Shown here: positions 641-32,000 of the stretch, in pieces
Numbering within the stretch: the stretch's first letter is position 1
Layout: each line of letters opens with the position of its first letter
Assembly (NCBI RefSeq): GCF_039945015.1
Contig: NZ_JBDUXP010000021.1
Span: forward strand, 77,951 to 109,950
DNA from: Dokdonia sp.
Lineage (GTDB): Bacteria; Bacteroidota; Bacteroidia; Flavobacteriales; Flavobacteriaceae
Direction: 5' to 3'
DNA length: 32,000 nt
The notes under the pieces: generated by a model
What the model was told of the DNA's origin: nothing
Database searches by the model: none
The model's input: only the letters and a program-made list of their open reading frames with translations
Program-made: the position numbers and the translations under genes

Positions 641-3157
641 ATGACTACCAGAGATGAATTTTATGGACTTAATGGAGCGACAGTAACTAAGGAATATTTA
701 GAAACTCTTTCTGGTCGTTTATATAAAGATCAAGCCTATGATGAAGCTAGAAGGGCAGCATACACAGCTTCTATTATGGGTGATGATGAAGTAGAGATCG
801 AGATCAGACCCCAAGGACTTGCTGGTCCTTCCCAAAATGATCTTTTAAAAAAAGCACTTAATGATTGTGGTAGACTTAAACCTGGATATAAATTTTTAAA
901 AGGAGGTAGGATTGTATATGTACTTAGAAGGCTTCACAAAAAAGGAGGTTTTGTATGGTTAACACAAGATTATAAAGGTCATGTTAAAGGGAAAAGGGGT
1001 AAAGTGACGGAGTACGCAACATCAGCCATCCACAATTATGTATATGTTATATGTTTTGAAGATGAAACAAGCGAAGAAATACCAGAAAAACATCTAATTT
1101 CTTTTAAGAAAAAACCTAAAGATTATAGAGAACATAAAACAAATATTAGTTCAGGACTTAAAGGGTTTAACACTTCATTACTTCCAAATGATGATCCAAA
1201 TGATTTTTATGGTTTGTCTTATGTCCCTTATTATTTGGATAATGAAGAGATAGGACTTGCAAAAGGGGTTTCTCCAGATGAGATATATGAGTATATTACA
1301 AAGATCATTATTGAAACTATAGAGGTTTCAGGTCATTTACCATGGCAGCGTAGTTGGGATAAAGGGATTACCATTTGGGATGGGAAACAAGCTGTAAACT
1401 ATGATAGCAAAAAACCATATCGAGGGATTAATTATTGGTTTACAAATTTTAAAATTGTCTTAGAAAAAGGAAAACGAAAATTAGTGCCTAGAGATTTGAC
1501 TAATCCTTATTTTCTTACGTTTAATCAAATTAAAAAACACAAAGGAACTCTTAAAAAAGATAGTAAAGGAATACGTGTATTTTACTTTACTAAGCTATAT
1601 ACGCATACTGAGGAATTACCTGGAGGTAAAAAACTTTCTATTAGTACTTATGACAAAAAGAAATACTTATCATGGCTTAAAAAGAATCAAGCCAAAATAA
1701 AGACATCTTCTATTGAAAGATTGGCCAATAGTTATATTCCTATTTTAAAATATTACAATGTTTTTCATGGAGCCGATGTTACTGGTATAAAATGGGACGC
1801 GTTTAAAGAAAACAAAAACCCTAAACTCCCTACAAAGGAACGGATCCAGATTGCTGAAAACATTATAAAGAAAATGCCTAATGTTCCTGAGATTCTTTTT
1901 CAAGGAAATCAACCAGCATATTACCCTTCTTTTGATCACGTCCGGATGACTCCTATAGAAGCTTTTAAGAGTGAGCAAGAATACTATGCAACCTTATTTC
2001 ATGAGCTGATACATAGTACGGGGCATACTTCAAGATTAAATAGATTTACAGGAGTAAAAAGTACTAAAAAAGAATATGCTTTTGAAGAATTAATTGCCGA
2101 GATGGGCGCTGTGTTCTTGTGTGCTGAGAGTGGTATTTTGTTTTCTGTGATTAATAATAGCGCTTCCTATCTGGCTGGATGGAATAAGAGGCTTGTAGGG
2201 AAACTTAAAAAAGACAACCGCTACTTTTTTAGAGCTTCTAGTAAAGCACAAGCTGCTACAGATTATATCTTGTATAGAGACAAAGAAGGTGTACCGGCAT
2301 ATTTGAAAGTCAAACCTAAAAAAAATATTCAGAAACCTACTCCTACAAAAAATAAATCTAAACAATTACAACTAGGGCTAAAAGGAGAGAAAACACAATT
2401 CATTAAAAAAAACAAAACTATTATAAGTAATAATATTGAGGGTTTACGATCTATGAGTGAAAAACCTCAAAAGTCCCCACTTTGGGAGATAGCAGGGGAA
2501 ACGGGTAAATTTTTAGGTAATGTAGAACGTAAGAATAAAGAGAGTGTTGTTGTAATTTTAAGTACACCCAAAGGAACTGGCAAAACTACAAGTGCATATA
2601 AATGGATCAATGACTTTGCGTTAAATGATGATGTTCTTTTTGCTTCACTAGAAGAACACCAAGAAAGTAATCTAGCTACAGATAAAGAAGATAAGTACAT
2701 TGAAGAAAGTAGGAAATCTAGGATTAGAACAACTTCAGATATCCCTAATAAACAGGTCCTTTATGATTGGATAGAATTGCATGATGTGATCATTTTTGAC
2801 AGTTGGCAGAAATTGATTGCAATTTTGGGTAAGCTTGATCTTGATCTTGATTTTAGAAAGCGTTTTAATGGGAAGATATTTGTCTTTATTGTTCAACAAA
2901 CGGTTGACGGAAAAGTAAAAGGGGGTGCCTCTCTTAGTTTTGATGGAGATATCATTGTTATGGGATGTAAAGGGGAATCTTTTAAAGACAATTACCTATA
3001 CTTTGATAAGAATAGATACACTAGAATTGATCTTGATAAAATAAGATACAATATAGAGAGTCATAAGACATTTAATCCCAAAGAGCCTAAAACAGCAAAT
3101 AATAGAGACACACAACCTCCAGTGCAATCAAAAGACAGTTGGTTATCGGTATCATAA
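641..3157 (+). CDS. ArdC-like ssDNA-binding/zincin metalloprotease fused to a C-terminal RecA/RadA-like P-loop ATPase; the first ~220 aa are unassigned
   Basis: ArdC N-domain signature: HLPWQRSWD...YRGINYW...LTFNQIKKHKGTLKKDSKG (aa ~230-320). Zincin motif: HELIHSTGHTSRLNR plus YAFEELIAEMGAVFLC (aa 454-495). Walker A: STPKGTGKTT (aa 641-650). Walker B-like: VIIFD (716-720). The RadA/Sms-like tail QQTVDGKVKGGASLSFDGDIIV...FDKNRY resembles the HVTKEG..AGP..LEH.VD / KNRFG region. Confidence 0.8.
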   Translation: MTTRDEFYGLNGATVTKEYLETLSGRLYKDQAYDEARRAAYTASIMGDDEVEIEIRPQGLAGPSQNDLLKKALNDCGRLKPGYKFLKGGRIVYVLRRLHKKGGFVWLTQDYKGHVKGKRGKVTEYATSAIHNYVYVICFEDETSEEIPEKHLISFKKKPKDYREHKTNISSGLKGFNTSLLPNDDPNDFYGLSYVPYYLDNEEIGLAKGVSPDEIYEYITKIIIETIEVSGHLPWQRSWDKGITIWDGKQAVNYDSKKPYRGINYWFTNFKIVLEKGKRKLVPRDLTNPYFLTFNQIKKHKGTLKKDSKGIRVFYFTKLYTHTEELPGGKKLSISTYDKKKYLSWLKKNQAKIKTSSIERLANSYIPILKYYNVFHGADVTGIKWDAFKENKNPKLPTKERIQIAENIIKKMPNVPEILFQGNQPAYYPSFDHVRMTPIEAFKSEQEYYATLFHELIHSTGHTSRLNRFTGVKSTKKEYAFEELIAEMGAVFLCAESGILFSVINNSASYLAGWNKRLVGKLKKDNRYFFRASSKAQAATDYILYRDKEGVPAYLKVKPKKNIQKPTPTKNKSKQLQLGLKGEKTQFIKKNKTIISNNIEGLRSMSEKPQKSPLWEIAGETGKFLGNVERKNKESVVVILSTPKGTGKTTSAYKWINDFALNDDVLFASLEEHQESNLATDKEDKYIEESRKSRIRTTSDIPNKQVLYDWIELHDVIIFDSWQKLIAILGKLDLDLDFRKRFNGKIFVFIVQQTVDGKVKGGASLSFDGDIIVMGCKGESFKDNYLYFDKNRYTRIDLDKIRYNIESHKTFNPKEPKTANNRDTQPPVQSKDSWLSVS

Positions 3158-5452: not shown

Positions 5453-6766
5453 TTATTTCACCCAACTATCAATGATATCGTAAATTGTTTGTTGTTTTTC
5501 TTTATTGAAATTTTTTATACGCGTAGTATGATCTCCTTTTGGTTTTACAAATTTATATAACTCACGTTTATTAGCCCCTTTATTAAGCTCTACAGCAGTA
5601 GAACTCCAAGCATCGTATTCTCCATAAATAAAGAGCATTCTTTCTGCAGTGCTATCTAAAAATGATTTTATTTCTTGCATTGGACGTGTATCATATTCTT
5701 TATAAACTCCTTCAGGAAAAGCCCATTCAAATTTGTACACTTCATCGGTTCCTATATATTTTTTAAAAGGAGCTGTTTGATATCCATAAATGCCTTGTTG
5801 TGTTAATGCTGCCCAGAAGTAGGGTTGTAGGTCATCTACCGCCTTTGTTTCAAAAAAACCATAGCCTACGACATCAATCAAGTGTTTATATATTTCTTGC
5901 GGTGTTGCATCTTTGGATGGAATATTCTTGCTGTCTGTACCCCATTGCCAGAACGCAAAGGAATATTCTAAAATGGTATAATCGATTGCTTTTTCTATTC
6001 CAAACTCCCAAGACATACCTCTTTCTTTTGCAGTGTCTTCTAAGATTTTTTTAAGTGCAGATCGATTTTCAAAACATAATTCTTGAAAATTAAAAACGCT
6101 GTCTCGTTCCTGCTGTGTACCTACATTGTTTAAAAATTCATAGACTCTTGGATCTTCCCTTTCATAATTAAGAGGCCCTACATAACATACGCAAGCATCT
6201 ACATTTTCTGGAAAAAATTTGCGATGTGCCATTGTTGTTTGACACCCTTTTGATATTCCCGTTGTGATAAATTTTGAAGTAGGGTATATGACTTCTCTTA
6301 TAGCACTTATGATATTTGCTTGATCTCTAGCTGCATTTTCTATAGTGAGTGTATTCCAAGCTATATTCTCAGGGCGAGAATTATTAAAATAACGATGCTC
6401 TATCGTTAATTGATTGGCTTTATAGTGATTTGCAAGTTCGCCAGATTTTTCTGTATAAATACCATACCCTTGTAACTCAACAAATACAGGTAATGTATCA
6501 TTCTCAAAACCTAATAATACTTTCTGTCTAAATGTTCCTTTTGATAGATCGGAATAATCAATAGGCTGTTCAAACCATAGTTCATAATTCTCGTCAAAAT
6601 GACTAACTGGCGCATTCTTTTCAATTTTCACAATGTTTTTTATTTGTGCTAACTTTTCAAAAGTTGATGCTTTTTTAATGACAACAATAGGCTGCTGCTG
6701 CGTCTTACACCCAATAATGAGTAGTGAAAAAACTAGTATTGAAAAATTGAATTTAATTTTATTCAT
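5453..6766 (-). CDS. Exported lipoprotein, S28/S37-like alpha/beta-hydrolase serine peptidase (tentative family)
   Basis: Lipobox LLIIGC. GxSxG-type nucleophile elbow GISKG. Size and overall look match Bacteroidota proteins I recall being annotated as S28/S37 aminopeptidases. The family assignment is from memory, not from an alignment. Confidence 0.5.
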   Translation of the reverse strand: MNKIKFNFSILVFSLLIIGCKTQQQPIVVIKKASTFEKLAQIKNIVKIEKNAPVSHFDENYELWFEQPIDYSDLSKGTFRQKVLLGFENDTLPVFVELQGYGIYTEKSGELANHYKANQLTIEHRYFNNSRPENIAWNTLTIENAARDQANIISAIREVIYPTSKFITTGISKGCQTTMAHRKFFPENVDACVCYVGPLNYEREDPRVYEFLNNVGTQQERDSVFNFQELCFENRSALKKILEDTAKERGMSWEFGIEKAIDYTILEYSFAFWQWGTDSKNIPSKDATPQEIYKHLIDVVGYGFFETKAVDDLQPYFWAALTQQGIYGYQTAPFKKYIGTDEVYKFEWAFPEGVYKEYDTRPMQEIKSFLDSTAERMLFIYGEYDAWSSTAVELNKGANKRELYKFVKPKGDHTTRIKNFNKEKQQTIYDIIDSWVK

Positions 6767-6808
6767 TTTTTAATATTTTAAAGAGATAGAGAAACTTAAA
6801 TTTATTGT

Positions 6809-10392
<3,584 letters not shown>

Positions 10393-13300
10393 TTAAAGTT
10401 GCATAAAATCTTCATTAAAAATCAATCCTAAATAGGAGACTAGTTCTTCAGCGTTTTCTTTAGTAAATACCATAGGCGGTTTAATTTTAAGCACATTATG
10501 GTCAGGACCATCTGTACTCATTAAAATACCGTAATCTTTCATTCGGTTTGCCAAATAATCAGTTTGAGGTGCTAAAGGGTTTTTATGGGTATCTACTAAT
10601 TCAACACCTAGAAATAAACCCTGCCCTCGTACATCACCAATGATAGGAAACTTCTTTGCTAATGAAGTTAATTCTGATTTTAAGTAGTTTCCTACTTCTA
10701 AGGCATTTTCTTGTAGTTTTTCTTGTTTTACAGTCTGTAATACTTTAGTTGCAATAGCACAAGAAACTGGATTTCCTCCAAAGGTGTTAAAGTATTCCAT
10801 ACCATTGGCAAATGTATCTGCAACTTCTTGAGTACAGGCTACAGCAGCAATTGGATGTCCATTTCCTAGAGGCTTTCCAATAGTTACAATGTCTGGAATA
10901 ACACCATGTAATTGAAACCCCCAAAATGTTTTTCCCATACGTCCACAACCTGTTTGAACTTCATCAGAAATACAAAGCCCACCTGCGTTTCTAATATATG
11001 TATAGGCTTTCGCCAAAAAACCTTTAGGGAGTTCTATTTGCCCTCCACAAGAAATAATAGGTTCTATGATAAAGGCACCTACTGTTCTTCCTTTATCTTG
11101 AATGTTTTCTATTTGAGATTGAACTTCTCCAGCATATTTTTGAGCAGCATCGTTGCCTGTGTATTTTCCTCTAAAAGTATCTGGTAATGGGAAAATATGT
11201 GTATGCTCAGGAGCACCTTTCCCGCCTTTTCCGTCAAATTTATAAGAAGAGATATCGATACACATATTAGAATTTCCATGATAACCTACTTCACTTGCAA
11301 TAATATCCCGTGATCCAGTATGAGCTTTAACCATACGAATGGCTAATTCATTAGCCTCACTTCCAGAATTTACAAAATGTAATACAGATAGTTCTGGAGG
11401 GAGTGTTTCTATGAGTTCCTTTGCTAAAGCATTAATATTCTCATGTAAATAACGAGAATTGGTATTAATAAGTGCCATTTGTTCCTGACCAGCTTTTACC
11501 ACATTATAATGCTCGTGACCTACATGTGCTACATTATTTACAGTATCTAAATATTTTTGTCCATATTGATCCATTAGGTATTGTCCTGAACCTCGAACCA
11601 TTTTTATAGGCGTATTATATTGTAGACTTAAGCTCTTACCTAGATGTTGTTTTCTATATGAAATTAAAGTATCGTTTTTTATCGTTTTTAATTGCGATAA
11701 TGCTTCAGACTTGAATAATAAATTCGGATTAGGACAAATACTTTTCCAAACATCTATTTGTCTGTAATATGCTACTCCAGGGTAGTCTTTTGTATAATCA
11801 AATAAAGAAAGTAATATCTGAAAATGTAAATGTGGTGCCCAATTTCCATTTTCCGGATGATTTCCTAGCTCAGCAATTTTAGCTCCTTTTTGGAGGGTAT
11901 CTCCAACAGTATGATTTAAAGCACCTGCAACTGTTAAGTGACCGTATAACGTATAAAAAATCAATGTATCTATTTGATGCTTTAATACAATAAGTCCTCC
12001 ATACTCTTTATCACCAGCATCATTTGCGGCAATAACAACTTGGCCATCAAAAAGTGCATGAACAGCTGTATGTTCAGGAAGCCAATAATCAACACCTAAA
12101 TGTATGGTTCTGCTTTCGCGCCCATAGTTTCCAATAGTGTCGTATTCGGTTGAGGTATAAATTGGACGCGGTTCTAAATAACCACCAGCAATAATCTTAG
12201 TAGGCATTTCTTTTTGAAGTTGATCTAACTTAAATTGGAATAGATCTAAATCATTAAAATCATGTTGATGTCCAATCCATTTGCTAGAAATGCTTAAATC
12301 TAAAGGATATACTTCTGTTTTATGAATACTTGGAAATAGATCAGATAAGGTAAACTGATTTTTAGAAGCCCATTTTTCAAATTCTTTCTGATTAGGATGT
12401 GCCTGATATCCACATGCATTTCTAAATGAAAATAATGCAAACTCTGGATGTATCTGATGCCATTTTTTAAGAACTTCCCAAGCTGGTTTTTCACTAATTA
12501 ACAAGTACTTATTATTAGGTTCTTTAATTTTATTAATAGCTGATTTGGTTACCGTAATAACCAATCGCATGGCAATGGCAGTAAATAAATGAACAAGTTC
12601 TTCTTCTTGTAATTTAAACGACAAATGATATCCTTTAATAATGGGTAATGCTGCTGCTAGCGGATCATTGTGATGCATGATAGCATAGGCACAGGTAATA
12701 GCGACATCATTTATAATTTGTGTATGGATAGCGTCGCCATAATCTATAGCAGCTTTTACTTGTGGTACTGTTAAGTCATCGGAGACAATTACATTGTTAT
12801 CATTTGCATCATTATGTACAATACTTTTTCGGAGTTGTGTATATGTAGGTTGATAGTCTTTAAATTGTCGTTGAAAACATGAAAGAATCTCTTTTTCTTC
12901 AGAAGAGAACAAATCAAAATGATTTATGGTCCATAATGATTGTGCTATATCCCAAACAAAATTACGATGTGCTTCAGGATGATCAAAACCTTGTAAAGCT
13001 CTCGTAAGTAAACCACATTGCTCTCCTAGACTAAAACGTAGATTATCTAATTGCGGGTTGACACTACTCCAAACCCTACCAGAAACCCAAGTAAGTAATC
13101 TCACTTTTCGGAAGTTACCTTGATGATCTTTTATTTCAGAAATAGCATTGTTATTGGTGTCTAAGACTACTTTTGGGGTTGTGATATTGGAATCATTCTT
13201 GGCAACATACTGTAATAGTTTTTGCTGAAAATCTAAATACTTTTCATCTTCATCAGGACGCGATATCTTTAGAATATAACGATCTTCATTGCCAACTTTA

Positions 13301-25023: not shown

Positions 25024-25407
25024 TTATACTATTTCTTTCCCTTGTATATATTGATATGCTGTTCGTTGTAATGTACCAGCACCTGAAAGATGTAACTTCT
25101 TATTAATATTTTTACGATGCGTACTTACAGTGGCTTCACTTATAGAAAGCATCTCTGCAATCTCTTTTGAAGAAAAGTCAAGACCAATCAAATTAAAGAT
25201 TTGATTTTGTCGAGATGATAAGGCACTAGAATAATTTTCTTGTTTACTATATACTTTGATAAGATGAATGATTTTATCAATTAATTTAGGATTTTTAGAA
25301 ATGGTTCGATAGGCAATGATGATTTTTAGTGTTTGATGAATGTTTAATTTTTGATGTTGTAGGCATGCGCGTTCAATATGTGTAATAATCTCTTGGGTTA
25401 TGTTCAT
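25024..25407 (-). CDS. Stand-alone LuxR/FixJ-type HTH transcription regulator with no receiver domain
   Basis: C-terminal LSSRQNQIFNLIGLDFSSKEIAEMLSISEATVSTHRKNINKKL matches the GerE/LuxR HTH. The first ~65 aa are unassigned. Confidence 0.7.
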   Translation of the reverse strand: MNITQEIITHIERACLQHQKLNIHQTLKIIIAYRTISKNPKLIDKIIHLIKVYSKQENYSSALSSRQNQIFNLIGLDFSSKEIAEMLSISEATVSTHRKNINKKLHLSGAGTLQRTAYQYIQGKEIV

Positions 25408-25479
25408 AGTATAAATTTAACCAGAACATGTAGTAGATAAAATACCCGTTATCAGGTATTTGTAATAATTTACTTGTAA

Positions 25480-25535: not shown

Positions 25536-25952
25536 TTATTCTAGGGTTCCTTTTGCAAAATAGCCCCAATCGGTATTTCCGTCTTTCTCATCAGATTTGT
25601 TTGAGACATGCCTCATATGATATACAGAAAGTTCAGTTTCTGAAGACCAAGAGATAGAAAACATTTGTGTTTCTGTCCAAACTCCCCCTTTGTTAATCCA
25701 GAAAAAATTTAATTGTTCTCCATACCCTTTACTCGTTTGTACTTCAAATTGCCTGTCTTTTACTAAATCACCATCTTCATCTTCTGCTACACCATATACG
25801 TTGTTATCTTCAATAAATAGGGTAAGTGTGTATTGTTCTCCATTTTCTTTTTCCATAACGCCTTTCCAAAGCCCGTCAAAGTCACGAGTTTGGGCAAAAC
25901 TACTACAGATGGATACTAAAATGATTGATACTGCTAGAATGGTTTTTTTCAT
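25536..25952 (-). CDS. Small exported protein of unknown function
   Basis: Signal peptide MKKTILAVSIILVSICSSFAQ. The mature part is acidic and beta-rich. No motif recognised. Confidence 0.55.
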   Translation of the reverse strand: MKKTILAVSIILVSICSSFAQTRDFDGLWKGVMEKENGEQYTLTLFIEDNNVYGVAEDEDGDLVKDRQFEVQTSKGYGEQLNFFWINKGGVWTETQMFSISWSSETELSVYHMRHVSNKSDEKDGNTDWGYFAKGTLE

Positions 25953-26223: not shown

Positions 26224-26853
26224 TTAGAAATCATATTTGCTCTGAATAGCATATTTAAGAAGTTCTCCTTTACCACTAAGTCCTAGTTTACGCATCATAT
26301 TTTTACGATGTTTTTCTACGGTAGAGACCGCTGTAAATCGGATGTCTGCAATTTCTGATGAGGTTTTATTTTGAGCGATGAGCTTTAAGATTTCTCGCTC
26401 ACTTTTGGAAAGATTGGATTTTGGGGTTTTTACTTTCGCGGAAGCGTTATCAAACAAGGTATGATCAATTCCTATGTCATAATATGGATTTCCTTCCATC
26501 ACGGCATAAATGGCCTTTAATAACTCCTCCAACGGACTATTCTTTAATACATATCCCTTGGCGCCTGCGTCTCGCATTTGGATAACGGCTCGGTCTTCAT
26601 CAAACATAGAGAAGGCAATCACCTTGATATGCGGAAACTCTTTTGAGATGACCTTGGTAGCCTCAATGCCATCTAGTTTAGGCATCCTAATGTCTGTAAT
26701 GACCACTTTAGGCTGTTTGAGACGTACAATATCTAATAAGCCTTTTCCGTCATTTGCAGTGCCTATAATGGAGATTCCTTCCTCATATTTTAATAGGAGT
26801 TGGATCCCGTCTATAAGCGATTGGTGGTCTTCTGCAATGGCAATTGTGATCAT
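26224..26853 (-). CDS. NarL/FixJ-family response regulator (REC + LuxR HTH)
   Basis: Receiver acidic pocket IAIAEDH, phospho-acceptor VVITDIRMPKLDG, conserved GAKGYVLK. HTH: LSKSEREILKLIAQNKTSSEIADIRFTAVSTVEKHRKNMMRKLG. Confidence 0.9.
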   Translation of the reverse strand: MITIAIAEDHQSLIDGIQLLLKYEEGISIIGTANDGKGLLDIVRLKQPKVVITDIRMPKLDGIEATKVISKEFPHIKVIAFSMFDEDRAVIQMRDAGAKGYVLKNSPLEELLKAIYAVMEGNPYYDIGIDHTLFDNASAKVKTPKSNLSKSEREILKLIAQNKTSSEIADIRFTAVSTVEKHRKNMMRKLGLSGKGELLKYAIQSKYDF

Positions 26854-27067: not shown

Positions 27068-29026
27068 TTATTCTTGTAAAGGAATATCAATACTGATACT
27101 GGTTCCTCTTCCTAGAGTGCTGTCTACTTCTATGCTTCCTTCTAAGTGTTCTACACGGCGTTCTATGTTGCCAAGTCCCATGCCATCCTTTTCTTCCAAC
27201 TTTCCTACTATAAAGCCTTTGCCGTTGTCTTCTACCATGATGTTGAGTTCGTTGTCATGTTGGGTTAATGAAATGGTCGCTTCTGATGCTTGTGCGTGTT
27301 TAACAATGTTTGTCACGAGTTCTTGTATGATTCTAAAGATGGTAATCTCTAACTCGTTGGGAATTCTGTTTTCCAATCCAAAGTCTTGCACATCAATGGT
27401 AAGAGTATTTGTCGTAGAAACAGTACGAGAAAGTTTTTCTATCGCAGGTAAGAGTCCATCTTTTGCCATCACGCCACTGTTACTCTTATGAGAGATGGAT
27501 CTTACTTTCTCATAGGCTTCATTCACCAAGTCATTGGTTTTTTGAAGTAATGCTTTTGGGTCATCTACCTTATCGAGATTACGCTCTAGATTCTCAACTT
27601 GCATCCGTACGGTAGCAAGGGTACTGCCTAGATTATCATGCAATTCGCCTGCGAGTCGCAGGCGTTCTTTTTCTTGTCCAGATACCATGGCATTAATGGT
27701 TTCTAGTTCTTTTTCTTTAAGAATGGTTTCTGTCTTTTGGATTTGGAGTTCGCGATCTTGCTCTGCAATGCGTTGTTTTCGTTTGGTGTTGCGGTAGACG
27801 AGGAAGGCGATGATGGAGCCGAGGAGGAGGGTGGAGGTTAGGATTATAGTTATTTGTTTTGTTTTTGCATCTGCTTTTACTTTATCTAATATAAGTTCGT
27901 TATTTTTAGTTTCTTGCTCTGCTATTGTTTTTTCTTTTTCTGCGGTTCTTAATTGCTGATTTAATTCACTTACAACTAAGTTATTTTTATCATAGTTGTA
28001 TAATCTACGATTTAAAAAAGAATTATACATTAATTTATAAGCGATTGCATAATTATTTTTTGATTCATTTAATGCAATTGCTTTAGGTTCATGATAATAA
28101 ATTGCTTTAAACCTATCTAATAATTCCTGAGATGATATACTATCTGATCTATTATAATATTGATTTGCATTTTTAAAATAAAAATTAGCTTTATTGAACA
28201 AACCTTCTTTTGAAAAAGTGGCACCTAAATCTAAGAAAGCATTAAGCTTGCTTTGATAGGTAAAAGGAGAGTCTTTATATTCGATTACTTTATTTAAAAA
28301 ATATTTTGCACTGTCTAATGTTCCTATAGTTCTATAGTATGCTCCAATATTTTCATAATATCTAATTTTTATATGATCTTTTAATTTGGATTCATTTTTA
28401 GAAATAAACTTAATTAGATCCTTGCAAGATTGATGGAAAATTGCTCTATCTTCTTTTATAGTCATTCCTTCAAATAAATTGTTGTAATATTTTGACCAAG
28501 CAATGTCACTTAAAGTTGTATTTAATTTTTCATATTCTTTTAAGTATTCTTTAAAAGATTTTCTTGTTAACGTATTTTCTCTAGAATATAATTTTAAATA
28601 ACCAAGTAATGCAAGTTTTTGAAAATCAATATTATTAGAATCCTTAGCTATTTGAAGTGCATTTTCTAATTGGTGTATACATGGTACATTTCTTTTATTA
28701 TTTAACAGATGATAATATGCATTAATACAACTTCCTAGAATAGTTAATGTATCATTTGTCTTATATATTGTTTGATAAAAAGAAATAGAATCTTCCGTAG
28801 GTTTTTGTCCTTGATTATTAATTAGTTGATTTAATAATATAATTTTTTTTTGTTGTTGTAGGTCATTCATCTTTTTTGATTCATTTATGACTGTAATTGA
28901 ATCTCCAGATATTAAATTTTCAGTAACCCTTTCAGAAATAGTCTCTTGCCCTAAGAGGATTACTGAATTTAATATAACAACAAAGAAAAGTAGTAGCTCA
29001 ATAATTTTATGGATTGTCATAGACAC
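27068..29026 (-). CDS. Sensor histidine kinase: signal-anchor, TPR-like extracytoplasmic domain, TM helix, coiled coil, HisKA_3, HATPase_c
   Basis: N-terminal helix IIELLLFFVVILNSVILL. Second TM ITIILTSTLLLGSIIAFLVY. H-box AGELHDNLGSTLA. N-box IIQELVTNIVKHA. G-boxes DNGKGF and GMGLGNIERRV. Confidence 0.85.
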   Translation of the reverse strand: MSMTIHKIIELLLFFVVILNSVILLGQETISERVTENLISGDSITVINESKKMNDLQQQKKIILLNQLINNQGQKPTEDSISFYQTIYKTNDTLTILGSCINAYYHLLNNKRNVPCIHQLENALQIAKDSNNIDFQKLALLGYLKLYSRENTLTRKSFKEYLKEYEKLNTTLSDIAWSKYYNNLFEGMTIKEDRAIFHQSCKDLIKFISKNESKLKDHIKIRYYENIGAYYRTIGTLDSAKYFLNKVIEYKDSPFTYQSKLNAFLDLGATFSKEGLFNKANFYFKNANQYYNRSDSISSQELLDRFKAIYYHEPKAIALNESKNNYAIAYKLMYNSFLNRRLYNYDKNNLVVSELNQQLRTAEKEKTIAEQETKNNELILDKVKADAKTKQITIILTSTLLLGSIIAFLVYRNTKRKQRIAEQDRELQIQKTETILKEKELETINAMVSGQEKERLRLAGELHDNLGSTLATVRMQVENLERNLDKVDDPKALLQKTNDLVNEAYEKVRSISHKSNSGVMAKDGLLPAIEKLSRTVSTTNTLTIDVQDFGLENRIPNELEITIFRIIQELVTNIVKHAQASEATISLTQHDNELNIMVEDNGKGFIVGKLEEKDGMGLGNIERRVEHLEGSIEVDSTLGRGTSISIDIPLQE

Positions 29027-29678
29027 TAATTTTTGCTATCGAAGATTTACATAAACCTCCTCCCGCATCTAAATTAATAATATCTAAATCTTCGTCATAT
29101 TCTGGTCCCATAATTATTTTAAAATCTCCATTCTTTCTAGTTTTAACGTGTCTTTTTCCATTACGATAATAAAATTCTTCATCAAAAATCCCATATTTAA
29201 TAGTATTCTCTATTTCAATATCTGTATCTTCCAGAACAGCTACTTGATTATTAAGCCCTACCAAGGTTCTATCAATGATAAGATATGAATCGTTTTCTAT
29301 AACTGGGAAAGAACCATATTCTTCAATGATTTTCTCAGCATTTTTTATATATGAACCCTTTGAGTTATCAAAATCTATTTTTACGTTTACTTTTATAAAT
29401 ATTCCTTTTTCTTCTATAATACTTCCTTCATTTTGAATTTTTTTATTGATTTTGATCTCAAAATCATCAATACCTAAGTTAAATGGTCCTTTGTAATTTA
29501 CTATTCTGATCTCAAAGCTTTGTAACCTTACTTTTCTTGGGTTATAATCGCTATCTGGTATAACTATAAACCTCCCAAAAAGTGCATATAAAGTGCTATA
29601 GGATTGTCCAACATATAATAATTGAAACCTGTTGTTATCTTTTACAGTTAGTCTTAAATTACTAGTTAAGTTTTCCAT
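29007..29678 (-). CDS. Hypothetical 223-aa acidic, beta-rich cytoplasmic protein (no family recognised)
   Basis: The ORF starts 10 nt after the S8 stop, and its last 20 nt overlap the kinase start. No signal peptide, TM helix, P-loop or metal motif. The support for it being coding is the tight coupling on both sides. Confidence 0.55.
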   Translation of the reverse strand: MENLTSNLRLTVKDNNRFQLLYVGQSYSTLYALFGRFIVIPDSDYNPRKVRLQSFEIRIVNYKGPFNLGIDDFEIKINKKIQNEGSIIEEKGIFIKVNVKIDFDNSKGSYIKNAEKIIEEYGSFPVIENDSYLIIDRTLVGLNNQVAVLEDTDIEIENTIKYGIFDEEFYYRNGKRHVKTRKNGDFKIIMGPEYDEDLDIINLDAGGGLCKSSIAKISVYDNP

Positions 29679-29688
29679 AATACATTTT

Positions 29689-31239
29689 TTATTTTTGATT
29701 ATTATTTAATTTTATTGCTTCATTTACACAGTTATAAACATTTAAAATGCCTACTCCATAATGATTGTCTGGTGTTGAAGGGAATGGGGTGTAAATACCT
29801 TCTTTCATTATAATACTTTTAATTTCTTCTGCTTTCAGATTTGGGTTTTGACATAGCATTAAAGCGATACACCCTGTTACCAATGGCGCAGATGCAGAAG
29901 TACCACTAAAATTTAAAAAGTAATTATTCCCTCCTCCAGGTTTAGTTTCTCTATTGGCTCCATATACATACATTATATCTGTAGTTATTAAGTTTGTTCC
30001 TGGAGCAGCAATATCTACTTTAGTCCCATAATTAGAACCCCAATCTGATGAATTACATTCTTTTTTCTTTTTTGGCATATTATCAATATCGAGTGCTGCT
30101 ACAGTTATCACAGAATCTAAATTTGAAGGAAATTGTTGTGTACATTGTTTATTACCTGCAGAGAAAACAATAGGTGTACCTAACCCTTCTCTACCTTTTG
30201 TTGCAACTTCTTCTATAGCAGCTCTTAAAGTTTTGAATGGAGATTTAAAAGTCCAAGAACAATTTATTACATCAGTTTTATCCTCAAACCCAGCAATTAG
30301 TAGTGCTTTTATAATTTTAAATAAATCTATGTTAAATCTTATTCTATTTATATCATTTTCATCATAATCAGAAAATCCAATCCTGTATGCTGCCAAACCA
30401 CAGCCTGTAGCAACACCGTCAACACCATATTTACCGATCTTGTTCCCAACAGCTAGGCCTGCACAATGTGTTCCATGTGGATCATAGTTTGATGGATTGG
30501 GTTTACTATCTTCATTTATAAAATCCCAGGAATATTTTTTTATTATTGCTTCTCTTAAATCAATATGTGTTAAATCTACTCCAGAATCTAAGATTCCTAC
30601 TTTGATATTTTTCTTACCTATATACCCTTGCTTATGAGTTTCATTTACTTTTATAGTGTCATACGCTTTTTGTTCACCAAGATCAGGGGCAATTTTGTTA
30701 TAAAATTTTGGATTAAAATATTCAAATAATTGAGGAGCCTTTTCAATTGTTGAAAAATTTAATTCTGCAATACTCACCCAAGATAGATTCGATAATATTT
30801 TTTGTTGATCTTCTGCAATTTTATCATTATCATATGTTATGAGGTGAAAATTTGCATAACCATCTTTACATTCTCCTATTCCTACTTCAATATTTATTTT
30901 TTTTTGAATTTCCTCTTTTGAATAAGCATAATCAGTTAAAATTATTACAGAACTACTTCCAAAATAGATTTCTCCTTTTCGTTCGTAAGTTCTATTTTTA
31001 GATTTGACTAACTCTTTCTCAGAATCAATTATTGGATCATTTAATTTCAACCCTTTGATTAAATCAACTTCGTAAGTATTATTCTTTTTGAATAGTCTTC
31101 GACAACTTATTTTTTCGCTACTGCCTTTATAATAGAGTTTTTCAATATTAACCTCTTTTATAAATTGAACTTTCGCTTTATGTTCAATGATTTTAAATTC
31201 AATAACATCACCATCATAATTATGAGTATATTTTTTCAT
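29689..31239 (-). CDS. S8 subtilisin-like serine protease without a signal peptide, with a ~200-aa N-terminal extension
   Basis: Catalytic triad motifs VGILDSGVD, HGTHCAGLA and GTSASAPLV; oxyanion SAGN. The N-terminus MKKYTHNYDGDVIEFKIIEH is hydrophilic. No C-terminal sorting domain recognised. The segment ...ILSNLSWVSIAELNF just before the catalytic domain resembles the end of an I9 propeptide. Confidence 0.85.
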   Translation of the reverse strand: MKKYTHNYDGDVIEFKIIEHKAKVQFIKEVNIEKLYYKGSSEKISCRRLFKKNNTYEVDLIKGLKLNDPIIDSEKELVKSKNRTYERKGEIYFGSSSVIILTDYAYSKEEIQKKINIEVGIGECKDGYANFHLITYDNDKIAEDQQKILSNLSWVSIAELNFSTIEKAPQLFEYFNPKFYNKIAPDLGEQKAYDTIKVNETHKQGYIGKKNIKVGILDSGVDLTHIDLREAIIKKYSWDFINEDSKPNPSNYDPHGTHCAGLAVGNKIGKYGVDGVATGCGLAAYRIGFSDYDENDINRIRFNIDLFKIIKALLIAGFEDKTDVINCSWTFKSPFKTLRAAIEEVATKGREGLGTPIVFSAGNKQCTQQFPSNLDSVITVAALDIDNMPKKKKECNSSDWGSNYGTKVDIAAPGTNLITTDIMYVYGANRETKPGGGNNYFLNFSGTSASAPLVTGCIALMLCQNPNLKAEEIKSIIMKEGIYTPFPSTPDNHYGVGILNVYNCVNEAIKLNNNQK

Positions 31240-31454
31240 GGTTAAATATTTTTAACAAAACTGAAGTTTTATTCAATGTTTTGTTATACCCATTACTGGG
31301 TATATTCTGTTAGCATTTGCTGAAAAACAACATGTTATGTTACGGGTTCCCGTAAAATGGAGGGTGAAATGACATATGTGTAAATAATTTGTAGGAAGAT
31401 GTTTGTGATTTATAAAGCGTAGTAAAAGGGGAGAGAATGTGATAAGTCTGATGT

Positions 31455-31476
31455 ACTTCGACAGGCTCAGCGTGAC
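31455..31476. repeat. Short dispersed motif acttcgacaggctcagcgtgac, with a nearby small hairpin gattctc-tat-gagaatc
   Basis: See 26996-27019 and 21530-21621. All were read directly from the sequence. Confidence 0.4.
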
Positions 31477-31564
31477 ATGTTTTTATGAACAGAGTATTCG
31501 ATACGATTCTCTATGAGAATCACTCAATCGCCTAGCATTTAAGTTTTATAAGATCTAGTTCTGT

Positions 31565-32000
31565 TTACAAAGGAATATCAATACTCACGCTGGTACCATG
31601 TCCTATAGCACTATCTATTTCTACAGAGCCTTCTAAGTGTTCTACGCGGCGTTCTATGCTACCGAGTCCCATACCATCTTTTTTTTGGAGTTTAGTTGCT
31701 TTAAAACCTTTGCCGTTGTCTTCTACCATGATGTTGAGTTCGTTGTCGTGTTGGGTGAGGGAGATAGTAGCTTCTGTGGCTTGTGCGTGCTTGACAATAT
31801 TGGTCACAAGTTCTTGTATGATTCTAAAGATGGTAATTTCAAGTTCGTTGGGAATTCTGTTTTCTAACCCAAAGTCTTGTACCTCTATAGTAAGACTATT
31901 AGGATTAGAAACCGTACGTGCCAATTTTTGAATAGCAGGTAAGAGTCCGTCTTTTGCCATGACCCCGCTATTACGTTCGTGAGAGATGGAGCGAACTTTG
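31565..32000 (-). CDS. C-terminal part of a second HisKA_3/HATPase_c sensor kinase, paralog of 27068-29026 (5' end outside the window)
   Basis: The frame stays open upstream of the Met in the track (KVRSISHERNSGV-MAKDG...), matching KVRSISHKSNSGVMAKDG in the paralog. My hand alignment shows 19 differences in 131 residues. Confidence 0.85.
   Translation of the reverse strand, partial: KVRSISHERNSGVMAKDGLLPAIQKLARTVSNPNSLTIEVQDFGLENRIPNELEITIFRIIQELVTNIVKHAQATEATISLTQHDNELNIMVEDNGKGFKATKLQKKDGMGLGSIERRVEHLEGSVEIDSAIGHGTSVSIDIPL

Follow-up and report, generated by a model that had tools for sequence, protein, structure and literature searches.

We describe here a gene cassette on the reverse strand of a 32,000-nucleotide (nt) stretch of DNA from Dokdonia sp. 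(hereafter the window), which very probably forms a kinase-centred, self-regulated unit made up of an operator, an optional S8 pro-enzyme, a protein of 223 amino acids (aa) (hereafter the partner), a sensor histidine kinase with a tetratricopeptide repeat (TPR)-like ectodomain and a NarL-type response regulator. The partner belongs to an undescribed family of marine Bacteroidota and is a new type of protein, as had been supposed in a preliminary description of this locus made from the sequence alone. The same description had placed the protease at the centre of the module, and this part has to be abandoned: a sensor kinase of the same architecture is encoded directly 3' of the partner in all 74 related cassettes (two short contigs, on which the frame after the partner is cut off by the contig end, are counted here), while only about a third of the cassettes have an S8 gene directly 5' of the partner (24 of 75, or 21 of 72 when the genome scan is taken alone), and this gene has been lost repeatedly. 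The features of the cassette are the following:

26224..26853, reverse strand: NarL/LuxR-type response regulator, 209 aa, with REC and GerE domains
27068..29020, reverse strand: sensor histidine kinase, 650 aa from the ATG at 29020, with a signal peptide, a TPR-like ectodomain, one transmembrane helix, HisKA_3 and HATPase_c
27074-27349, reverse strand: HATPase_c domain of the kinase
27488-27667, reverse strand: HisKA_3 domain of the kinase
about 27788-27856, reverse strand: transmembrane helix of the kinase
about 27857-28939, reverse strand: TPR-like ectodomain of the kinase, ~360 aa, predicted to be periplasmic
29007..29678, reverse strand: partner, 223 aa, no signal peptide, undescribed family, with conserved motifs, a hypervariable linker and a near-C-terminal Cys
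29689..31239, reverse strand: S8A subtilase, leaderless, 516 aa, with a pro-region at about aa 1-205 and the catalytic domain at aa 209-497
31287..31302: exact 16-bp palindrome, reading TACCCATTACTGGGTA on the forward strand, candidate operator, 48-63 nt upstream of the S8 ATG

The cassette in the window and across genomes

In the window the partner starts 10 nt past the S8 stop codon, and its last 20 nt overlap the kinase gene when the GTG at 29026 is taken as the kinase start (the NCBI record begins the kinase at the ATG at 29020, which shortens the overlap to 14 nt); the regulator starts 214 nt past the kinase stop. All of these junctions are as they had first been read. In Pfam, a HisKA_3 and HATPase_c kinase with a REC and GerE regulator makes this a NarL-class two-component system; the NCBIfam matches of kinase and regulator are all below the equivalog cutoffs, so that the system is not a named orthologue. 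The TPR signals of the kinase are weak in Pfam.

A scan of one genome per species gave 71 loci, in which open reading frames (ORFs) were then called and searched with a profile of each component; all but one of these loci are in Bacteroidota, the exception being a metagenome-assembled genome (MAG) labelled Chlorobiota. Among the Flavobacteriaceae, partner loci were found in Dokdonia, Maribacter, Kordia, Aquimarina, Polaribacter, Spongiimicrobium and others, and further ones in Cyclobacteriaceae, Roseivirga, Fulvivirga and Ekhidna. The gaps between partner and kinase range from about -146 to +84 nt, most of them within -90 to +84 nt, with overlaps of 1-4 nt being frequent, and a NarL-type regulator comes after the kinase in at least 57 of the 67 complete cases. 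At the thresholds used, a clear N-terminal signal peptide was detected in 61 of 67 cassette kinases and a single membrane helix at about residue 350-415 in 66 of 67; taken together, these two features place the TPR-like domain of ~350 aa in the periplasm.

Where the S8 gene is present it lies close to the partner: of the 21 related cassettes that have S8, 19 show a gap of 5-56 nt between the two genes, and the other two have gaps of 135 and 155 nt. In three protein clusters (P0005, P0077 and P0092) the two proteins are fused in a single chain of ~700 aa with S8 first, and the gene for the P0005 fusion is itself trailed by a kinase and a regulator; on a metagenomic contig, a 35%-identical partner starts 15 nt after the S8 C-terminus. 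The S8 and partner trees are largely congruent. The pair recurs in 24 of the 75 cassettes and as a fusion in three protein clusters, so that it is not a product of chance, and the functional link that had been suggested between the two proteins is borne out by the fusions, the congruent trees and the recurrence in many genomes. That the genes have no functional relation, being neighbours that are merely co-transcribed, is hardly credible: partner and kinase are adjacent in 74 of 74 cassettes, which come from both Flavobacteriia and Cytophagia and whose proteins are only 25-35% identical, and there are the gene fusions and a putative operator shared upstream as well.

In the S8-less cassettes, no S8 gene or remnant was found within 2.5 kb upstream, and in the partner tree the clades without S8 branch within those that have it, a pattern that points to repeated loss of S8 with retention of partner, kinase and regulator. 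A partner that served solely as substrate, effector or inhibitor of the protease, as had been proposed, should vanish with S8, yet it stays, and a sole role of this kind is therefore not supported. A related possibility is that the partner is a split C-terminal domain, a chaperone or an inhibitor of S8 and that the two-component system controls expression only. The order in the three fused clusters is indeed like that of subtilases with C-terminal accessory domains, and the short gaps (10 nt in the window) and the congruent trees fit as well; however, ~68% of the cassettes have the partner with no S8 in the upstream 2.5 kb, the S8-less clades lying among S8-bearing ones keep the coupling of partner and kinase, and at least two distant S8 classes are found in the same position, so that we regard this explanation as improbable.

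The kinase, too, is found in more than one form. Six Cytophagia loci (L015, L021, L026, L034, L039 and L062) encode the partner with a TPR-ectodomain kinase whose core is of the HisKA_2/HWE type and not HisKA_3, with different small helix-turn-helix (HTH) and REC genes in the vicinity. These loci are a natural transmitter swap, in which the pairing of partner and ectodomain survives.

The partner family and the S8 protease

The window partner has an isoelectric point (pI) of 5.05, with 35 D+E against 29 K+R residues, a single Cys (C210) and, in an AlphaFold2 (AF2) model, a beta-rich structure; the preliminary description of an acidic, beta-rich ORF without recognisable motif holds, with zero matches in Pfam and NCBIfam. 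The model is a confident one, with a predicted local distance difference test (pLDDT) of 85 and a predicted template-modelling score (pTM) of 0.82. A Foldseek search with it against PDB and BFVD, one of the checks that had been proposed, found no neighbour (best E of 0.22 and 0.03, template-modelling score at most 0.25), and a sequence-profile search of PDB and a Pfam scan with 40 family members returned only noise. In the literature searched and in the domain and structure libraries we found no account of the family or of the cassette.

A word-indexed search of 5.8 billion proteins recovered only three relatives of the partner; when 1.84 billion cluster representatives were searched exhaustively with HMMER, 142 partner-family clusters (50% identity) were obtained at E<=1e-3. 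Most members stand alone, with 180-250 aa, and the family was seen only in Bacteroidota, except for one MAG labelled Chlorobiota; among 2.9 million viral contigs there were no relatives. The family defined here is widespread and unannotated, and its predicted fold is unmatched. In 40 aligned members we recognised the motifs RxQxxYxSQxYGTFF, INYKG and NGxFDxEFYYRxG and the invariant residues Y27, G64, F165, D166, E168, R172, G174 and C210. The motifs are followed by a disordered, polar and hypervariable linker of 20-81 residues, after which the model of the window partner has a well-packed C-terminal strand. The invariant Cys is found 8-10 residues from the C-terminus in nearly all members and 13 residues from it in the window partner.

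Residues 209-497 of the S8 protein match Peptidase_S8 (PF00082) in Pfam with E=1e-45 and 156.6 bits, against a gathering cutoff of 21.8. The catalytic set is complete (triad D218, H255 and S448, oxyanion N363), and the D/H/N/S columns are invariant across 25 cassette S8 proteins aligned to subtilisin BPN'. An in-frame TGA 13 codons 5' of the ATG excludes a hidden N-terminal extension, and this stop, together with a hydrophilic N-terminus of low maximum hydropathy (MKKYTHNYDGDVIEF), indicates that the protein has no signal peptide, which is absent from all 25 cassette S8 proteins tested. Pfam detected no domain C-terminal of the catalytic domain in the window protein. The protease is therefore, as first described, leaderless, with a complete triad and without a C-terminal sorting domain. 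It had also been set apart from the exported proteins of the window, each of which was said to carry an obvious signal peptide; this is correct for the kinase and for a 138-aa protein encoded nearby, the two that were verified.

For the N-terminal region of S8, which had been described as an unassigned segment followed by a propeptide-like one, the Pfam I9 propeptide gave no match in the window protein. The closest homologue is the P0005 fusion (40% identity), and a model of it, built from an unpaired alignment with a pLDDT of 74.6, has a beta-alpha-beta-beta-alpha-beta unit at 77-147, before the catalytic domain; the model aligns to unprocessed pro-subtilisin E (3whi), prodomain included, over ~430 columns, which makes a prodomain likely. 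Carried over from this model, a propeptide-like unit may be present in the window S8 as well, as had been described, while the first ~75-95 aa are still without assignment. Pairwise BLAST gave no significant match between the N-terminal 205 aa and the pro-region of secreted relatives (E=0.2-0.6); what the two have in common is a [YF]Y.Y.G..I motif that was recognised by eye only.

The cassette S8 proteins fall into at least two distant classes, one of ~385-430 aa (with a subgroup of ~480 aa) and one of ~485-590 aa. In a rough neighbour-joining (NJ) tree the long class is nearer to ordinary secreted subtilases than the short class, a placement that suggests that S8 was recruited into cassettes more than once. 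Those distant relatives that were inspected (P0008, P0017 and P0025) carry signal peptides, and several of the S8 matches listed carry a PF18962 domain, which we take to be a type-IX secretion tail and which is absent from the window S8. The closest solved structures by sequence are mirolase, subtilisin BPN' and fervidolysin.

An intracellular protease beside a small protein, with a C-terminal strand that follows a flexible linker in the latter, recalls the gasdermin-protease and IetAS pairs with which the cassette had been compared, and a protease-activated defence effector could be imagined in which S8 frees a toxic or pore-forming activity of the partner on infection. The leaderless protease does adjoin a small protein of no known family, the strand that comes after the disordered linker might act as an autoinhibitory latch, the occurrence of hypervariable cassettes in fixed positions is reminiscent of defence hotspots, and a generic PADLOC subtilase model matches S8 (E=6.5e-17). 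Nevertheless, we consider this explanation very unlikely. No gasdermin-like fold was detected, because the partner model has no Foldseek similarity in PDB or BFVD, and the sole PADLOC match of the partner is a weak and unrelated type II methyltransferase model (E=0.004), with none to gasdermin models and no match to a defence protein. Unlike IetAS, the cassette has no ATPase gene and the partner has no ATPase-family match; the IetS match on S8 (E=4.8e-4) covers residues 212-264 only, of a model of 795 positions. Moreover, the protease is dispensable in most cassettes, whereas a sensor kinase is always coupled to the partner. The neighbours are housekeeping genes in a syntenic position, and the locus lies neither in a defence island nor on phage DNA, in line with the lack of relatives on viral contigs. 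The defence, effector or gasdermin-like role that had been put forward is thus without support from fold, PADLOC, genomic context or viral contigs.

The hypervariable block and the putative operator

Three further features of the window are needed here:

27884..32000, reverse strand, running past the window end: hypervariable block comprising paralogue stump, S8, partner and kinase ectodomain
31565..32000, reverse strand: 3' end of a second sensor kinase paralogue, 5'-truncated (469 aa in the full record; positions 6705-8114 of our locus record L002)
25443..25458: one-mismatch palindrome TACCCGTTATCAGGTA, 36-51 nt upstream of the LuxR-solo gene 25407..25024

When the window was compared with another Dokdonia locus (L068), no DNA similarity was found over the hypervariable block, except that the kinase core of the stump (31565-32000) matches the conserved core; the flanks of the block are 80-85% identical. 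The similarity ends after a small membrane-protein gene and returns at ~27883, that is at residue ~379 of the kinase, just before the transmembrane helix. The guanine-cytosine (GC) content is 24-30% over S8, partner and kinase ectodomain (28001-31000), against 35-38% in the kinase core and the flanks. Protein identities among six Dokdonia loci, a comparison between species of one genus, are 23-33% for the partner and 25-38% for the kinase ectodomain, whereas the kinase core (66-94%) and the regulator (66-87%) are far better conserved. The chromosomal site of the locus, too, is conserved and has housekeeping genes around it: 22 Flavobacteriaceae loci have the cassette next to one and the same gene for a small membrane protein and to a PRA-PH gene, with S8 present or absent between.

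In 57 complete cassettes, partner and ectodomain identities are correlated (Mantel r=0.75), and the correlation persists when kinase core and regulator are taken into account (partial Mantel r=0.71, p=2e-4); between the partner and the kinase core, given the ectodomain, there is no residual relation (r=0.01). A reverse mosaic is seen between L020 and L038/L042, where partner and ectodomain are ~50% identical and core and regulator ~38%. Taking into consideration the co-variation, the reverse mosaic and the HisKA_2 swap, the evolutionary unit is thus partner plus ectodomain, with S8 where it is present.

These comparisons bear also on the possibility that the partner is a cytoplasmic accessory protein or co-sensor, which modulates the kinase on the cytoplasmic side, be it by inhibition, as a scaffold or by supplying a second input, with S8 cleaving or degrading it to switch the kinase, and with the hypervariability of partner and ectodomain being independent or driven by linkage. 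Other two-component systems have dedicated accessory proteins. Neither the partner nor any cassette S8 has a signal peptide, overlap and translational coupling of the partner with the kinase is the rule, the set of invariant motifs could be a docking surface while the variable parts bind something else, and the disordered linker before the well-packed C-terminal strand could be a cleavable latch. However, a protein that works on the cytoplasmic part of the kinase is difficult to reconcile with the lack of residual correlation between partner and core, with a partner that is kept with the ectodomain when the core changes from HisKA_3 to HisKA_2, and with a homology break before the transmembrane helix that leaves the cytoplasmic parts of the kinase conserved and the partner not. 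We consider such a co-sensor unlikely; if the partner did act in this way, it would represent a new class of dedicated two-component accessory protein, tied to an unusual intracellular subtilase.

The second kinase in the block lies 325 nt from S8. It has no signal peptide and lacks the first ~160 aa of the ectodomain, and its core shares, judged by eye, ~85% identity with the core of the cassette kinase. This gene has the appearance of a stump that remained from an older cassette when cassettes were stacked or replaced. Tandem kinases in a similar arrangement are found in L035/L037, L060, L066 and L071, and L005 has two complete tandem cassettes. Partner remnants were looked for beside the secondary kinases and none was found.

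Upstream of S8, the palindrome at 31287-31302 fits the NarL-type 7-2-7 pattern TACCC-N6-GGGTA, and TACCCAGTAATGGGTA is the palindrome DNA that we put forward as the target of the phosphorylated regulator. The pattern agrees with an engineered, high-affinity NarL 7-2-7 site, TACCCCTAAAGGGGTA (PMC4549865). In 1.34 Mb of fetched loci, TACCC-N6-GGGTA has 54 exact sites, of which 20 lie at -300 to -30 of the first cassette gene, a region that makes up 1.5% of the sequence and in which ~0.8 would be expected (~25-fold enrichment); two further exact sites are just inside S8 ORFs with over-extended starts, and 22 further cassettes have a one-mismatch palindrome at -300 to -30. The palindrome precedes S8 where S8 is present and the partner where S8 is absent, so that S8 is inside the regulated unit. 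We propose that the palindrome at 31287-31302 is a putative operator of the cassette's own regulator. In this respect the early suggestion that S8 and partner are tied to a two-component system proved sound, the genes sharing an operon behind the NarL 7-2-7 site. A scan for sigma-70 promoters and terminators gave counts equal to those of shuffled sequences, such a scan being uninformative for Bacteroidota.

In many related loci, extra copies of the palindrome lie immediately 3' of the regulator gene, an indication of a small regulon adjoining the cassette. The LuxR-solo gene of the window (25024-25407, reverse strand; 127 aa, GerE only) is a candidate additional target of the regulator. Between this gene and the regulator, a 138-aa protein of no family with a clear signal peptide (25536-25952, reverse strand) is a possible secreted target of the system. 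Beyond position 32000, the truncated kinase is preceded by a leaderless 173-aa ORF (L002 5548-6149) that, like the partner, has a Cys near its C-terminal end. This ORF has no match to Pfam or to the partner profile and an exact palindrome of its own, TACCCATTGGTGGGTA, 80 nt upstream, and it may be an analogous but unrelated partner.

Elsewhere in the window, 641-3157 (forward strand) encodes an 838-aa protein with an ArdC N-terminal domain and a zincin MPTase-PolyVal metallopeptidase domain, an anti-restriction-like architecture that is usual on conjugative elements. At 10393-13419 (reverse strand) there is a 1008-aa fusion of an APH-type phosphotransferase, Peptidase_M23 and a class-III aminotransferase, whose gene is flanked by two GH2 beta-galactosidase-like genes for proteins of ~1050-1095 aa.

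Proposed mechanism and comparison with known systems

We hypothesize that the partner forms the signal-generating or ligand side of the system, as a precursor, a carrier or an enzyme that makes the cue, and that the TPR ectodomain would be its cognate receptor in the periplasm. S8, where present, would carry out the intracellular maturation or turnover of the partner. The activated kinase would phosphorylate the regulator, which would then bind the palindrome and feed back on the operon and on the neighbouring LuxR-solo gene, and the joint diversification of partner and ectodomain would lead to lineage-specific signalling. By analogy, our best reading is that this logic would be that of comQXPA, of the agr pherotype loci or of synthase-kinase pairs such as phcBSR. 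The assignment of partner and ectodomain to the signal and receptor sides is tentative and somewhat short of an even chance, and the whole statement, architecture plus proposed mechanism, comes closer to even without reaching it.

Several observations weigh against the partner as the signal side. The main weakness is that neither partner nor S8 has an export signal and that the cassette has no transporter, which leaves the route of a cue to a periplasmic receptor unexplained. Known pheromone precursors are short, whereas the partner is a folded protein of ~200 aa whose core is conserved. Two thirds of the cassettes lack S8, so that proteolysis by S8 is not essential, and the length of the linker does not differ between S8-bearing and S8-less cassettes (33 vs 34.5 residues, p=0.37). 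All loci were retrieved via the partner, which makes the count of ectodomain with partner (72 of 72) circular; no part of the ectodomain alignment is sufficiently conserved to be used in a scan of the collection. Finally, physical linkage alone could give the correlation of partner and ectodomain, because the partner gene lies right against the kinase gene at its 5' end, while recombination would be expected in the conserved core; the transmitter swap is harder than the correlation to explain in this way.

A more specific version of the signalling proposal, namely a phylum-specific, pherotype-like cell-cell or self signalling system of marine Bacteroidota that combines a leaderless novel-fold protein as source of a lineage-specific cue, optional maturation by an intracellular subtilase, a co-diversifying periplasmic TPR receptor and positive feedback through the NarL 7-2-7 site, is, in our estimate, unlikely. 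Bacteroidota dominate particle-attached marine communities. To our knowledge, lineage-specific receptor-signal cassettes based on peptides or proteins have been described mainly in Firmicutes, and we found no comparable signalling system in Bacteroidota in the literature searched; if the proposal were true, this would be the first protein- or peptide-based communication of the comQXPA/agr type outside monoderm bacteria. As a two-component system the cassette is of a known kind; what sets it apart is a dedicated accessory family that is new, together with the unusual subtilase inside the cell and the pherotype-like mosaic evolution. The partner family gains a testable role beside a defined receptor domain and operator, and the loci of Dokdonia, Maribacter, Aquimarina and Kordia offer a natural allelic series for specificity.

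Among known systems, a lantibiotic LanP/LanRK cluster was considered and rejected, since no lanthipeptide precursor and no LanB/C/M/T genes were found in the 20-kb record or in the window. The intracellular subtilisins of Bacillus are, like the cassette S8, without signal peptide; they have a short inhibitory N-terminal extension, whereas the window protein has a pro-region of ~205 residues with a putative prodomain-like unit.

In the phcBSR, luxMN and cqsA/cqsS operons a cytoplasmic synthase is encoded beside the kinase that senses its product, and in phc the synthase and the sensor co-vary between strains. The partner is likewise a leaderless, presumably cytoplasmic protein encoded beside a sensor kinase; however, these synthases belong to known enzyme families, whereas the partner has no recognisable catalytic fold and is accompanied by a protease in a third of the cassettes.

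The agrBDCA locus of staphylococci encodes a processing protease, a precursor, a kinase and a regulator and is autoregulated; its hypervariable block covers part of the protease, the precursor and the sensor domain of the kinase, and the precursor has a functionally essential Cys in its C-terminal part. Gene order, hypervariable block and a Cys near the C-terminus, together with the autoregulation proposed here, are likenesses to the window cassette. The components are nevertheless of other kinds: AgrB is a membrane cysteine peptidase, AgrD has 46 aa, and AgrC and AgrA are of the HPK10 and LytTR types, all of which are absent from the window cassette.

In the comQXPA quorum-sensing locus of Bacillus subtilis and its relatives, the genes overlap and a variable sensor domain of the kinase is joined to a conserved cytoplasmic domain (PMC4008528). 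The window cassette differs in its enzyme, an optional subtilase in place of the isoprenyl transferase ComQ, in a partner that is folded and of ~200 aa where ComX is a pre-peptide of ~55 aa, in a soluble periplasmic TPR-like sensor on one helix where ComP has a polytopic membrane domain, and in its host, a diderm of another phylum, the comQXPA census having found none outside Firmicutes. In both, one strand carries first an enzyme gene, then a gene for a small or unknown protein, then the HisKA_3/HATPase_c kinase and last the REC and GerE regulator, with identical Pfam types (PF07730/PF02518 for the kinase) and the same mosaic conservation, the variable block here covering enzyme, partner and sensor domain while the kinase core and the regulator are conserved between species.

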